Assembly (NCBI GenBank): GCA_040290255.1
Contig: PSMU01000002.1
Span: 32,001-96,000 of the forward strand
Origin: Nitrososphaerota archaeon
GTDB taxonomy: Archaea; Thermoproteota; Nitrososphaeria; PSMU01
Direction of reading: 5' to 3'
Length of the DNA: 64,000 nt
The notes under the pieces are model-generated. The model was not told the DNA's origin, did not search any database, and was given only the letters and a program-made list of their open reading frames with translations. Positions 32,003-37,136 of this stretch are shown one piece after another; position 1 is the stretch's first letter; every line of letters begins with the position of its first letter. Both the position numbers and the translations under genes were made by a program.

Positions 32003-33157
32003 CTACATCACCTCCCCCGCAACGCCCTTCGCGCTATGCCCAGTCGCATGAAGCCTCGGGGCTGTGGGCTCTCCCTCGCTGAACAGCCAGCGCGCTCGGA
32101 CCGCATCCCAGCTCAGCGTGCCCATGCTTAGGTCCTTCGCGATGTGAAGGCCTTCCCGCCTCGCGTAGGAGGCGAGCTGTTCCGCCAGGGAGGGAGGGAG
32201 CTCATAGGGCCCCAGGGCCAGAAGCAGGGGGGCGCCGCAGGCAGTGCAGGCCACGCGGCAGAGCAGCAGCTCGGGCAGCACCTCCTGCTTCTCGAGCAGG
32301 CCCTCTTCCCTGGGCCGAAGCAGCACGAGGCTCGAGAGCCTGGGATCCGTGAGCCGAGGCGCCCTGAAGAAAACGTTCGCCCCACAGGCCCCGCAGCGCG
32401 CGGCATAGGCCTTGCCCACGAGCACAACGCCCCCCTGCTCCCTTTGCTCCTGCTCGGCCTCCGAGGGCAGGGCGGGGCCCCCCTGCGACTCCTCGAGCTC
32501 CTCACGCGTTAAGTTCCTGGCCCAGGCTGGCAGCACCTGCTCTAGGGCCTGTAGGGGCATGTTCGCGGCCACCTCCTGCAACCTCTTCGCGCTCAGCTGG
32601 TTGGCGGCCGCAAAGGCGGCCAGCACGGGCCAGGCCTCCCTCTCCCTCCTCAGGATGACCTCCAGATGGCTGAAGTTGAAGGTGAAGCCGCTGGCCTTCT
32701 CTATGGCATGCAAGAGCGCGAAGAGCCCGGCCGCCTCGAGCGCCTCCATCATCCTCTTCTTCGCCTCTATATCTCGAATGCCATGCCTCTGCGCGAAGGC
32801 CGTCAGGAACCCCTCGCCCTGCGTTCTGACCACCCTCCTGAAGAGCAGCAGCTGTTCGAGCGCCGTAAAGTTCCTCCTCTGCTGGCTCGTCCACGCTATA
32901 TCCAAGACCTGCTGTGGGTTGAGCTGTAGCTCCACCAGCCTGATGCTCTTGAGCCCCAGCCTCCGGCAGGCCTCCAGCCTCCTGCCCCCATCCACGATCC
33001 AGTAGCCCCCTCCCTCCCTCCTCACCGCCTTCACGGGCTCCTGCTGGCCCACGCGCCTGATGCTATCCATCAAATCGCCCACTTCATCATATCTTATCCT
33101 CACATGTACCAAAGGATGGACTTCGCAGAGCTCCAGCGGCACCTCCTGTGGCTGCAC
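32003..33157 (-). CDS. ParB/Srx N-terminal domain protein with C-terminal CxxC pairs
   Basis: LMDSIRRVGQQEPV...YWIVDGGRRLEACRRLG; CGAC...CTAC. Confidence 0.85.
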   Translation of the reverse strand: MQPQEVPLELCEVHPLVHVRIRYDEVGDLMDSIRRVGQQEPVKAVRREGGGYWIVDGGRRLEACRRLGLKSIRLVELQLNPQQVLDIAWTSQQRRNFTALEQLLLFRRVVRTQGEGFLTAFAQRHGIRDIEAKKRMMEALEAAGLFALLHAIEKASGFTFNFSHLEVILRREREAWPVLAAFAAANQLSAKRLQEVAANMPLQALEQVLPAWARNLTREELEESQGGPALPSEAEQEQREQGGVVLVGKAYAARCGACGANVFFRAPRLTDPRLSSLVLLRPREEGLLEKQEVLPELLLCRVACTACGAPLLLALGPYELPPSLAEQLASYARREGLHIAKDLSMGTLSWDAVRARWLFSEGEPTAPRLHATGHSAKGVAGEVM

Positions 33158-33158
33158 T

Positions 33159-34367
33159 TCAGTTCTCCTCTAGGCTCAGCGCCAGCCTATAGAGCTCCGA
33201 CCAGCGCGCTCCCGTCCTCTCCTCGAGCTCCTGGGGCACCAGCAGCCCCTTTAGCCCCGTGTAGCCCCTGGAGCCCCTGGTGAGGCCCAGCTCCACGGCA
33301 AGCGTGTAAAGCTCCAGCCTCTGGGCCATGGGCAGCGAGCGGAAGAGCTCCATATCCGCGGCGATGAGCGCGGCGGCCACCTGCTTTTCGCTTGCGATGG
33401 GAAGCGCGGGGCTCAGGTAGGAGCTGGCCCTCCTCTCCAGCTCCCTCAGCAGGCCCGCCTTCTCCAGCAGGAGGCGCGATGCCGCCAGGTTCTGGGGCGA
33501 GAGGCGCCTCCTCGCGCTGGCCAGGAGCTGCTGATGGCCAAGGCTGATGCTCAGCTCCTTTCCACAGTAGGCCAAGAGCCTCAGCACGTATGAAAACTCG
33601 CTGGGCCTTAGAGTGACGGTTATGCGCGGGGCCCAAGCAGCCTCGGCATCCTCCTGCTCCGTCGCCAGCAGCAGGGCTCCTTCGCTTCCCGTGGCGCTGA
33701 GCAGCTTCGTGGCGCTCATCAGCCTCCCCTTGACCAGGCAATCCCTGAGCAAAGGGGCCCAGCGCGCGATGACTATGCCCCGCGTGCCGCTCACCATCAG
33801 CTGCGCCTCCCTGGGCTCGCCATCCACGTACAACCTGATGCCGCTCTTCGATTTGGAGCGAATAAGGAGGCGGAGCGCGGGCAGCCTCAAGTTGAGCAGG
33901 CCCAGCCTTCTTGCTACGGGATGAAACTGGGCCTTCGCGAGGACCTCCAGCACCTCAAGCTTGCTGAGCCCCGCCTCTAAGCCCTGCAGGTAGAAGGCCA
34001 GCACCGTGGCCTGATAGGGAAGGAGCCTGAGCCCTCGCTCATTCGCCCTCCTGTAGAGCGCCCAGGCCCTGTACTCCAGCAGCTCCCGCTCGAGAAGGGC
34101 GCAGTGGCTCGTCAGGAGCGCGCAGAGCGCGCTGATGCTTTCGTTGGGCCCCTCAGCGCCCAGCGCCCTCAGCGCCACGTACTCCCTTCTCCCCACCCCC
34201 CTGCCGAGGATCGCCTCCATCTCCCTTCTGGAGAGCCTTGAGCCGGGCGGAAGGCCTGGGCAGCCCGGGAGATGCGCATCCGCCATCTGTCCAGGCGCGC
34301 CGTAATCGGGGGCTTCAAGGGCCCTGTCTAGGCCAACCTTATCTTGAAGCCCCCTGCGCGCCGCCAT
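33159..34367 (-). CDS. Hypothetical protein, possibly a divergent TFIIB/cyclin-fold protein
   Basis: First gene of the ParB operon; AWALYRRANERGL...ATVLAFYL and PSEFSYVLRL...KQVAAALIA loosely resemble TFB repeats. Confidence 0.45.
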   Translation of the reverse strand: MAARRGLQDKVGLDRALEAPDYGAPGQMADAHLPGCPGLPPGSRLSRREMEAILGRGVGRREYVALRALGAEGPNESISALCALLTSHCALLERELLEYRAWALYRRANERGLRLLPYQATVLAFYLQGLEAGLSKLEVLEVLAKAQFHPVARRLGLLNLRLPALRLLIRSKSKSGIRLYVDGEPREAQLMVSGTRGIVIARWAPLLRDCLVKGRLMSATKLLSATGSEGALLLATEQEDAEAAWAPRITVTLRPSEFSYVLRLLAYCGKELSISLGHQQLLASARRRLSPQNLAASRLLLEKAGLLRELERRASSYLSPALPIASEKQVAAALIAADMELFRSLPMAQRLELYTLAVELGLTRGSRGYTGLKGLLVPQELEERTGARWSELYRLALSLEEN

Positions 34368-35646: not shown

Positions 35647-35739
35647 AGGGATTAGGGCGCTAAGGAGGACAAAAGCCACCATCTATTCATAAAAAAAGGA
35701 ACAAGTTCTCATAAACACAATCGAGTATAGATTTCTGGC

Positions 35740-35886
35740 ATGGATTCCGAAACCAGGCTCAAGCTGGCCGTGGTGGCGGTCAGCCTGGGCGTAGCTGCGG
35801 CAACGGCGCTGGCAACCACGCTGGGCGTAGCGCCCACTGCCACCGTGCTCGGGGCAGAGGCCGCGAACTACGGCGTTACGATTTAA
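35740..35886 (+). CDS. Small hydrophobic peptide (48 aa), candidate secreted signalling-peptide precursor
   Basis: Below the track cutoff; ATG...TAA gives MDSETRLKLAVVAVSLGVAAATALATTLGVAPTATVLGAEAANYGVTI, behind an AT-rich promoter-like region. Confidence 0.6.
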   Translation: MDSETRLKLAVVAVSLGVAAATALATTLGVAPTATVLGAEAANYGVTI

Positions 35887-35910
35887 GGCTGCTCTCACCT
35901 CAGCTTCAAG

Positions 35911-37020
35911 TTAGCGGGCCGTTATTTCTTTCTGCAAGAGCTGCACCGCTCTTACAGCTATATCGGAATCAAAGAGCCACCTGCCCGAGCTGGCGTCGAA
36001 CATATGCGATGGGAAAAGGTATGCCGTAGCCGTATTGCGATCTATAAATGCGATCCTTAGTTTAGCCGCGACTTCGGGCGGCAGGCGCTCGCTGAGCCAG
36101 GTGGCCGCCTCTATGAACTGATATTGGGGTATGACTGCCTCGGAGTATAGGAACGTCCTATCATCGTTGTAGAAGATGGCCCAAGAAAAGGGCAGGGACG
36201 TCAGCGCCCCCAGCGCCGAAACATACTCTGAGTATGTTAAATTCTCCAGCCAGATCTTCGGGTACAAGACCCTGTGCGCAGGCGTGATGGCTGGCTCGCC
36301 CGTCCATAAGACGTTATACCCGCTCAGAAGCCTCCTTCCCACCAGATGCGCCTTATAATGATAAAGGACGGTCTTAAGCGTGAGCTTCTTATCGATCTCG
36401 GCGGCGAGGCCCATGAACTCCTCCGCAGGGTTCTTCTGTATTGCCCTGGCCATCTTCACATCGAGCGCATCGAACAGCGATGGCTGCAAATCCTCAGCCA
36501 GGATGGGTTGGCCCACGCTGTCCAATTCCTTCCAGTTGATGCTCCATGTCCTGTGCTGAAAGTCAAAGAACTCGGGCCGGAAGGGTAACGGCACCCTCGC
36601 CGATGTGACGTAGGCCTTGTAGGCCTCGACCAGCTCCATCTCCTTAAGCTTGTTCATGAACTCTAGAAAGGCAGAGGTTTTGTCCGCCGGCAAGTAGAAG
36701 TACGCGATCAGGCTCTTATCGAAGAGCGTCCTCGCGAAGAAGGAGCAATAGGCCACTTCGGCCAGCAGCTTTCCAAAGCTCATTTCGTGGCCATGCAGCA
36801 CCTTCGAGAGCCGCAGGATGGAGATGACGGGCCTCAGCCCGAACTTGGCATAATTTATCACAGGCACGCATCTGAAGCCCATATTGTTTAGCTTGCCGAC
36901 CCAATAGCGCACCGTCTCCGGATGGTGCCCCACCTCGCGTGCTATTGCGCTGATGTTACGGGGGCCAAGGATCTGTAGATACTCAACCAGCTTGCGGGGG
37001 TCTACCACCTTCTTGGGCAA
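35911..37020 (-). CDS. Tandem (double) Lrp/AsnC-like winged-helix regulator
   Basis: HTH1 GPRNISAIAREVGHHPETVRYW...INYAKFGL; HTH2 FDALDVKMARAIQKN...KTVLYHY; each followed by a RAM-like alpha/beta segment. Confidence 0.8.
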   Translation of the reverse strand: MPKKVVDPRKLVEYLQILGPRNISAIAREVGHHPETVRYWVGKLNNMGFRCVPVINYAKFGLRPVISILRLSKVLHGHEMSFGKLLAEVAYCSFFARTLFDKSLIAYFYLPADKTSAFLEFMNKLKEMELVEAYKAYVTSARVPLPFRPEFFDFQHRTWSINWKELDSVGQPILAEDLQPSLFDALDVKMARAIQKNPAEEFMGLAAEIDKKLTLKTVLYHYKAHLVGRRLLSGYNVLWTGEPAITPAHRVLYPKIWLENLTYSEYVSALGALTSLPFSWAIFYNDDRTFLYSEAVIPQYQFIEAATWLSERLPPEVAAKLRIAFIDRNTATAYLFPSHMFDASSGRWLFDSDIAVRAVQLLQKEITAR

Positions 37021-37136
37021 GCTCGCTCGTGCCTTTCGCCCCCGCCCACCTTCATTATTTAAGTTTCGAGGTGGCCACGATTTATCACATCGCTCCAGAG
37101 CTGTAGTTTATATCCTCCTTCCGCCCGCGGGGCCCT

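Follow-up and report, generated by a model that had tools for sequence, protein, structure and literature searches.

A micro-protein gene strictly linked to a tandem Lrp/AsnC-type regulator in Thermoproteota, and its candidacy as a peptide ligand

The locus

Here, we describe a two-gene module in a 64,000-nucleotide (nt) stretch of DNA from a Nitrososphaerota archaeon. The stretch, called the window throughout and meant at its whole length, covers positions 32001-96000 of one contig in a 1.21 Mb genome of 9 contigs that is 91% complete. One gene of the module is a 48-codon open reading frame (ORF) that specifies a hydrophobic micro-protein. The other gene, convergent with the first, specifies a 369-amino acid (aa) protein containing two Lrp/AsnC-type units. 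An earlier analysis made from the letters alone (the sequence-only reading) had proposed that the pair constitutes a peptide-signaling cassette, with the C-terminal residues of the micro-protein released and sensed by the neighboring regulator. Comparison across related genomes establishes that the small ORF is a real gene and that its linkage to the regulator gene is strict and old. With that foundation, we consider what the micro-protein could do. The features of the locus are as follows.

35687-35739, plus strand: AT-rich, promoter-like spacer before the micro-protein gene (putative promoter)
35687-35700, plus strand: TTCATAAAAAAAGG in the AT-rich spacer, read from the sequence
35710-35724, plus strand: CATAAACACAATCGA in the AT-rich spacer, 16-30 nt before the peptide ATG
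35740-35886, plus strand: micro-protein gene, 48 codons, translation MDSETRLKLAVVAVSLGVAAATALATTLGVAPTATVLGAEAANYGVTI (from the ORF list)
35887-35910, no strand: spacer of 24 nt between the convergent stop codons
35911-37020, minus strand: tandem Lrp/AsnC-type regulator gene, 369 aa in a single chain, TTG start
35922-35933, plus strand: T-rich run TTATTTCTTTCT, 36-47 nt past the peptide stop, within the 3' end of the regulator gene
37021-37070, minus strand: promoter-like region of the regulator gene (putative function)
37053-37063, minus strand: CTTAAATAATG, 33-43 nt before the regulator TTG start

The ORF list bears out the existence of the small ORF, the translation that had been given for it, and the 24-nt distance to the stop codon of the 369-aa protein. 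The peptide begins with a charged N-terminus, MDSETRLK, continues into a hydrophobic helix of ~22 residues ending in LGVAP, and finishes with a variable C-terminal tail, TATVLGAEAANYGVTI. The sequence LGVA indeed occurs twice, the duplication noticed at the outset. Two acidic and two basic residues are present in the n-region, the hydrophobic stretch is at least 15 residues long, and the Kyte-Doolittle mean over 19 residues reaches a maximum of 2.04. The sequence is contained in 5 DNA sequencing runs labelled soil metagenome, from 2 studies; no RNA run was listed for it, which speaks neither for nor against expression.

The sequence-only reading also held that the cassette is less GC-rich than its surroundings. 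That description fits the regulator gene (0.55, with flanks at 61-69%) and the upstream spacer, where the 46 nt before the peptide ORF (35690-35735) have a GC content of 0.283 versus 0.634 for the whole window, but it does not fit the peptide ORF, at 0.66. By codon position, the GC content of the peptide ORF is 0.67/0.55/0.76. Its third-position value (GC3) of 0.76 lies among those of the neighboring genes (0.73-0.82), whereas two antisense ORFs that overlap it have values of 0.58 and 0.64.

The peptide and regulator genes probably use separate promoters. Because CATAAACACAATCGA lies 16-30 nt before the peptide ATG, a leaderless or near-leaderless mRNA would result. Conserved TATA-like blocks ~25-35 nt before the peptide ATG are common to the window and to locus L026, which belongs to a different family, as is the upstream block CATA(T)AAACA(A)CACAATCGA. 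A conserved upstream 12-mer, considered as an operator, occurs once in the window, which is the chance level. Past the other end of the peptide gene, the T-rich run TTATTTCTTTCT is a possible oligo-T terminator of the peptide transcript. The distance between the two stop codons ranges from about -4 to 229 nt in relatives. Separately, the four loci of family f6 (L011-L014) share a conserved palindrome, TTTCC-N3-GGAAA, ~90 nt ahead of the start codon of the peptide gene, which may serve as an operator or terminate transcription of the preceding gene.

A micro-protein family and its partner regulator

The 48-codon ORF is a real gene because its GC3 is gene-like, its codons evolve as those of a protein, it holds a strict position beside the regulator, and it has conserved relatives. 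Specifically, in pairwise codon comparisons of related peptide ORFs (six groups), the proportion of nonsynonymous differences (pN) is below that of synonymous differences (pS) in 39 of 39 cases, and the ratio of the corresponding rates, dN/dS, is 0.05-0.62 in the 31 pairs with unsaturated synonymous sites (0.36 for the window ORF against L026). Beside homologues of the 369-aa protein in related genomes, a small hydrophobic ORF sits in the same place at nearly every locus. A peptide family profile built from 16 peptides matches one site per regulator locus, always adjoining the regulator gene, and the window ORF is matched at E 1.9e-11. The profile found 10 additional loci at E<1e-3 and, elsewhere, nothing better than E 0.28. 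An RNA gene in place of the ORF was considered and rejected (best Rfam match E 0.4, 24.5 bits versus a gathering score of 100).

The statement that annotation had missed the small ORF stands only in part. Its exact 48-aa sequence is on record in the ESM Atlas, three clusters are recovered at 96, 88, and 85% identity with the window peptide as query, and a profile search of 5.8 billion proteins returns 191 more distant relatives, whose source names include Conexivisphaerales and Nitrososphaeria. All of these, however, are labelled “hypothetical,” they have been assigned to no family, and none of the 191 possesses a Pfam domain. Pfam and NCBIfam scans of 25 aligned peptides likewise gave nothing below E 0.05. 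An ESM Atlas search with the peptide provided no usable lead (best score 0.85, a holin cluster at 0.81), and the same search with the 40-residue form described below gave nothing.

Linkage was examined in a class-level sample of 301 genomes. The regulator family is present in 37 of them: in families f2 (9/9), f6 (7/8), f5 (6/10), f3 (7/14), f8 (2/2), and f13 (2/3), and it was not found in f4 (0/181) or f12 (0/39). A genome can have up to 5 regulator matches. Adjacent small ORFs, which the sequence-only reading expected beside homologous regulators, accompany 34 of 46 full-length regulators collected at class level and 25 of 52 loci examined at phylum level. At class level, the partner is a convergent peptide in 27 cases, with stop-to-stop gaps of 6-229 nt. 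In the other 7, which form one clade, the same strand carries, 47-141 nt upstream, a gene for a different hydrophobic peptide of 61-72 aa, which begins in a signal-like manner and has the C-terminal motif GGGDE[IV]D-P-x-x-[YW]-P-[GA]. Peptide subtypes track regulator clades in a tree of the class-level regulators (omitted are L015, L020, and L045, which have no complete ORF; L044, 312 aa and apparently broken; and the duplicates L002, L029, L030, L033-L036, L038-L043, and L046-L048).

The reverse search is the stronger test of linkage. When run against the 301 whole genomes, the peptide profile yields 31 matches in 25 genomes. Twenty-eight are tail-to-tail with a regulator match, and the other 3 lie within ~150 nt of a contig end; thus, the peptide gene does not occur alone. 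The regulator is also detected in 24 of the 25 peptide-positive genomes, the exception being G032, which is 77% complete and has the peptide at a contig start. In genus g30 (L023, L025, L027, L044), the convergent gene specifies, instead of the peptide, a ~300-aa protein that possesses an ArsR-like helix–turn–helix (HTH) followed by several membrane helices.

Beyond the class, the regulator family exists in 114 of 401 sampled Thermoproteota genomes, several of them single-contig assemblies. The 52 phylum-level loci are not a random sample: they comprise the 12 best plus 40 chosen, out of ~145 matches, to span families. The micro-ORFs found at 25 of them, namely all 12 best loci and 13 others, are convergent. 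Some of these peptides (L056, with a profile E of 1.2, L070, L071, L076-L078, and L088-L093) were assigned by eye and not by score. In other classes, the partner ORF can have as few as 10-25 codons and no hydrophobic part (the f43, f23, and f29 groups). The f43 partner reads M-x-G-P-x-x-G-x-[DE]-P-x over 10-13 codons in 6 of 6 loci, the f23 partner ends in GPPVGPIPVW or MSFLGPPVGPYPVL, and the f29 partner ends in GIPIGAPIPID in 4 of 4 loci. At the other extreme, L070:217-576 (plus strand) is an ORF of ~106 aa in which a signal-like start precedes six tandem decapeptides of the GGPIGIPVPL type. It is convergent with a tandem-Lrp gene ~97 nt away and looks like a multi-copy peptide precursor. 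A strict tail rule (at least 2 Pro and at least 5 Pro plus Gly within the last 12 residues) picks out the convergent site at 12 of the 52 loci; of the 3468 other small ORFs in these loci, 18 comply with it. Each of the sequence motifs likewise occurs only at the expected site, a count that is not an independent test because the motifs were written after the sequences had been seen. Taken together, the micro-proteins form an unnamed family of 10 to ~106 aa whose members, in Thermoproteota, occur only directly beside a single-chain tandem Lrp/AsnC-type protein, most often tail-to-tail with it.

Some regulator matches contain one in-frame stop, a feature that recurs within genus g72: those in G425, G334, G305, G362, G383 (TGA), G376 and G529 (TAA), G534:C1 (TGA), and G633 (TGA plus TAG). 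They could be two adjacent, unfused Lrp genes (a pre-fusion state), pseudogenes, or cases of recoding.

Within the peptides, conservation and variation are unevenly distributed. The class consensus is M-x3-4-K-[IV]-[KR], a hydrophobic stretch of ~20 residues with G at its end, P-L-[GD]-x-x-I-G-G, and finally 3-5 variable residues. In the commonest clade, represented by 93 distinct 40-mers, the helix and the P-L...G-G block are nearly invariant; M1, T2, K6, G10, P30, and L31 are fully so, and entropy is highest at positions 37, 39, and 40 (2.3-2.8 bits). In the window subfamily, 10 of 15 changes among the three relatives (85-96% identical) fall within the last 11 residues. The 88%-identical peptide is recorded on a contig of 1653 nt, and a regulator with 58-62% identity also comes from a contig of 1653 nt. 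The equal lengths are suggestive, short of proof, that P0003 and P0274 are the peptide–regulator pair of the nearest relatives. Across lineages, what is kept is a C-terminal segment of 10-15 residues in which Pro, Gly, and aliphatic residues abound and which is often acidic. Because several families lack the hydrophobic segment and retain this C-terminal core, the core is the persisting element and the N-terminus is optional.

The partner of the micro-protein has a tandem Lrp/AsnC fold, as the sequence-only reading had suggested from two winged HTH (wHTH) and alpha/beta modules. The order is wHTH-1 (residues ~8-46), RAM-like domain 1 (~49-144), wHTH-2 (~185-227), and RAM-like domain 2 (~232-326), and each half ends in an FD-x5-W hairpin. 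Pfam recognizes only a weak AsnC-type HTH in the window protein (residues 9-39, PF13404, E 0.0032, 17.7 bits versus a cut-off of 27), whereas homologues exceed the cut-off for HTH-2 (38.3, 46.4, and 39.2 bits). A search of 1.84 billion cluster representatives returned 254 regulator relatives, mostly of 360-400 aa, and 104 of these were aligned to produce a family profile. Against the PDB, the second half of the profile matches ST1022 (E 1.5e-10) and LrpA (E 2.1e-9), and the first half matches PH1519 (E 8.4e-5). Both HTHs are thereby aligned to solved Lrp proteins, and the alignment extends through the RAM domain of LrpA and PH0061.

The AF2 model of the regulator (predicted local distance difference test [pLDDT] 95.6, predicted template modeling score [pTM] 0.92) displays the same order of domains, with two three-helix wHTH units. 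By VIA, residues 62-140 match the RAM-only protein DM1 (Z 7.5, root-mean-square deviation [rmsd] 2.1 Å, 73 residues), and residues 180-340 match full Lrp chains (Z 7-8.3). The best structural match is NirDL (4ch7), with a VIA Z of 17.2 versus 8.8 for the next match, an rmsd of 4.7 Å over 295 aligned residues, and a Foldseek E of 6e-11. By sequence, the family is nearer to Lrp regulators than to NirDL/AhbAB; the siroheme decarboxylase family was considered for the fold and rejected on the sequence profile. Two His residues of the second “recognition” helix, His221 and His225, are nearly invariant. The protein is a putative DNA-binding protein. The regulator gene has ~8-10 points lower GC than its neighbors, and in the family tree, its product is placed on a long branch (1.75). 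The copy may have been transferred or may be evolving fast.

The genes surrounding the pair differ from place to place. In the window, they specify a thiolase, a SnoaL-like protein, a NUDIX protein, and others. Elsewhere, the recurring neighbors are NadE (two families), TackOD1, and an aminotransferase, and the context otherwise varies. Specifically, in f2 and f6, a gene for NAD synthase (NadE, PF02540, E ~1e-72 to 1e-74) lies directly upstream of the regulator on the same strand (L004:115-1380, L010:2613-3386, L012:2799-3581, and relatives), an arrangement not present in the window. In f5, the gene just past the peptide gene has a product that contains a TackOD1 output domain (PF18551, E 1.8e-33; L005:58-1023, with orthologues in L007-L009). 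Window positions 32003-34367 (minus strand), where GC is 64-70%, specify a 384-aa protein whose ParB N-terminal domain is matched weakly (E 1.4e-4) and, after it, a 402-aa protein that Pfam does not match.

The micro-protein as a proposed ligand, and the alternatives

We favor the interpretation that the peptide is the cognate ligand of the neighboring tandem-Lrp regulator, to which, from the sequences, we give an even chance. A dedicated ligand–receptor pair best fits the strict adjacency, the separate promoters, and the conserved core with a varying tip, along with the optional N-terminal segment, the multi-copy precursor, and the several paralogous pairs per genome. The notion is that, in the window lineage, the peptide gene would be transcribed from its own promoter and the product would insert into the membrane via its N-terminal hydrophobic helix. 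The C-terminal part would then be released outside the cell and re-imported, with an Opp/Dpp-type transporter as one candidate route; the tandem-Lrp protein would bind it, and binding would alter how the regulator interacts with DNA. In this scheme, the export of the peptide, its cleavage and re-uptake, its binding to the regulator, and any link to cell density are all presumed. Its extracellular part, that is, signaling between cells, strikes us as possible but on the doubtful side.

Several observations bear on these steps. The idea that the C-terminal stretch is the active portion finds indirect backing: this stretch is kept where the N-terminus is missing, it is tandemly repeated in L070, and it changes fastest among the closest relatives. 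The organism's own genome has 3 Peptidase_M50 (site-2-type protease) and 5 SBP_bac_5 (Opp/Dpp-type binding protein) matches over the cut-off, which would permit processing and uptake and are permissive only. Prediction of the peptide–regulator complex yields a score of 0.44, with the best of 3 controls at 0.01; at least 75% of contacts agree between runs and partner pLDDT is at least 68, and the result lends the pairing weak support. In calibration, that mark is reached by 58 of 80 solved complexes and by 2 of 110 mismatched pairs, and scores at or below 0.60 take in just 7 of the 80 solved complexes and both mismatches, with the counts rough because custom alignments were used.

Other findings weigh against the ligand interpretation. 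The complex score falls in a range where most passes are false unless the pairing was probable to begin with. No recognizable partner ORF accompanies 12 of the 46 class-level regulators (five clades; tiny partner ORFs were looked for beside these and none was seen) or 27 of the 52 phylum-level loci. The leaderless forms of 10-15 aa have no obvious export route. In the window peptide, the equal numbers of acidic and basic residues leave the n-region with no net charge, which is unusual for a Sec signal, and the tail is devoid of the GG and most of the Pro of the consensus. Near the peptide and regulator promoters, a shared operator motif and inverted repeats of at least 8 nt were sought and none was found. 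Finally, the hydrophobic helix is conserved far beyond what an ordinary signal peptide would show and has a small-residue face, which the signal-peptide model proposed in the sequence-only reading leaves unexplained. In the 40-mers, helix residues G10, M11, A13, G16, A17, S18, V20, A22, L24, and G25 are nearly invariant, and in the window subfamily, the first 37 peptide residues differ at only 3 positions. This conservation suggests that the helix performs a specific function in its own right.

The peptide could, then, be a permanent small membrane protein, anchored by its helix, never released, and working with the regulator in some other manner. In variants of this idea, the peptide gene is the main target of the regulator, or the conserved cytoplasmic N-terminus tethers or inhibits the regulator at the membrane. 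We judge this account unlikely. Conservation of one helix face, with small residues every 3-4 positions (G10, A13, A17, V20, L24), is as expected for helix packing; the N-terminal motif [DE]-x-K-[IVL]-[KR] recurs across subfamilies; and the near-invariance of the first 37 residues in the window subfamily persisted while the regulator drifted to ~60% identity. However, lineages without the hydrophobic segment retain only the C-terminal core, and the L070 precursor carries the core six times after a signal-like start. Thus, it is the C-terminal part that appears to be the functional unit.

A second alternative assigns the activity to the larger partner. The tandem Lrp-like protein could be a peptide-handling enzyme or chaperone, comparable to NirDL/AhbAB, with the micro-protein as its substrate, for instance the precursor of a modified peptide or a cofactor. 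NirDL is by far the best structural match, the two His residues of the second recognition helix are nearly invariant, and the micro-protein divides into a conserved “leader” and a variable “core,” much as modified-peptide precursors do. At the level of sequence, however, the 38 PDB sequences that the family profile matches at E<=1 include no NirDL/AhbAB chain. NirdL-like_HTH (PF22451) is not matched by the window protein, and of 4 homologues scanned, only 1 has a match, below threshold (E 0.0074, 16.3 bits versus 27). Moreover, no modifying-enzyme or tetrapyrrole gene recurs beside the pair, and several paralogous pairs per genome suit regulators better than a housekeeping enzyme. We consider a role as enzyme or chaperone improbable. 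Three other Lrp-like ORFs of ~170 aa in the same genome have sub-threshold NirdL_HTH matches.

A third possibility places the coupling at the RNA level. The transcript of the convergent small gene would control the regulator through antisense or transcriptional interference, and the peptide would be secondary. Stop-to-stop gaps are very short in most loci (about -4 to 130 nt), and in the window, no T-run follows the stop of the regulator gene on that gene's strand, which makes overlapping transcripts probable. Nonetheless, the amino acid sequence of the peptide is under purifying selection, with protein motifs kept while synonymous sites are saturated, and in the clade that has the small gene upstream on the same strand, antisense overlap is impossible. 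Such coupling as the main function seems to us very improbable. Lastly, although Ala/Val/Leu/Gly-rich open frames are common at 63% GC and two antisense ORFs overlap the 48 codons, a chance open frame is refuted by sequence comparison (family-wide conservation, pN below pS, strict position beside the regulator, and 85-96%-identical relatives) and retains a negligible probability.

If the peptide is indeed the ligand, a larger proposal can be put forward, albeit tentatively. The pairs would represent the first gene-encoded peptide-signaling systems in archaea, in which micro-peptides that are signal-anchored, leaderless, or multi-copy are each read by a dedicated tandem Lrp/AsnC receptor, with tails and receptors co-diversifying into “pherotypes.” By the same proposal, which we hold to be speculative in equal measure, such systems would be widespread among Thermoproteota lineages, as many as five pairs occurring in one genome, and the RAM fold would be an independently evolved pheromone receptor, analogous to the RRNPP receptors of Firmicutes.

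Comparison with known systems

The regulator has its closest kin in the Lrp/AsnC family, exemplified by ST1022 of Sulfolobus tokodaii and LrpA and PH1519 of Pyrococcus. The wHTH plus RAM sandwich is present in both halves of the archaeal protein, as reflected in the profile matches and in structural matches that extend over ~140-150 residues. The differences are that two units are fused in one chain, that each carries an extra FD-x5-W hairpin, and that the first HTH of the window protein is under the Pfam cut-off. The known ligands of Lrp/AsnC proteins are free amino acids. To our knowledge, a gene-encoded peptide is not among them. NirDL provides the only solved single-chain tandem Lrp-like architecture, and 295 of 309 residues can be aligned in a pseudo-dimer. 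In contrast to that structural likeness, identity to NirDL/AhbAB is 13% with no sequence-level match, no heme or heme d1 genes surround the pair, and there are several copies per genome, each with its own micro-ORF.

On the peptide side, the Phr/Rap systems of Bacillus and the AimP/AimR (arbitrium) systems of phages employ a precursor of ~40 aa with an N-terminal signal, from whose C-terminal end the active peptide is derived, and the precursor gene adjoins the gene for the cytoplasmic receptor. They differ from the archaeal pair in having a tetratricopeptide repeat (TPR) receptor fold, another gene order, and non-homologous peptides.

The Rgg/SHP quorum-sensing systems of streptococci (RRNPP family), above all those of group III, resemble the archaeal module in that a very short precursor gene adjoins the gene of a cytoplasmic HTH receptor. 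According to a review (PMC13361665), group III shp genes are convergent with rgg, with overlapping ends, and leaderless variants are known. Mature SHPs are described there as acidic, then aliphatic, and ending in GG (DIIIIVGG, DILIIVGG, ETIIIIGGG), a pattern that is similar to the [DE]-x-I-G-G core of the archaeal peptides. The receptors, however, are unlike: HTH-XRE plus TPR in Rgg, tandem Lrp/AsnC in this archaeon, whose model has only tandem wHTH and RAM domains and no TPR-type helical repeat. The window-class peptide also has a helix that is longer and highly conserved, and its GG is followed by 3-5 residues. The receptor is not an RRNPP protein, and the comparison drawn in the sequence-only reading is one of layout and logic only, with export, Eep-type processing, and Opp import presumed here.

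Very little is known about cell-to-cell communication in archaea (PMC12240190). Our search of the openly available literature found no archaeal system composed of a gene-encoded peptide and a cytoplasmic receptor and nothing relevant on tandem or fused Lrp proteins or on small ORFs beside Lrp regulators. Two genes, one of them very small, make for a concrete, testable module. Were the peptide shown to be the ligand, the Lrp/RAM fold would gain a new class of effector, micro-ORFs of 10-15 codons would gain a function in archaea, and gene expression in these organisms could become open to synthetic control. Even without signaling, the module is a strictly linked micro-protein–regulator pair that is mostly unnamed or uncalled by annotation pipelines. 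Relative to known systems, the novelty lies in the peptide family, its pairing with the regulator, and the occurrence in archaea; the superfamily to which the receptor belongs and the general logic are already familiar.

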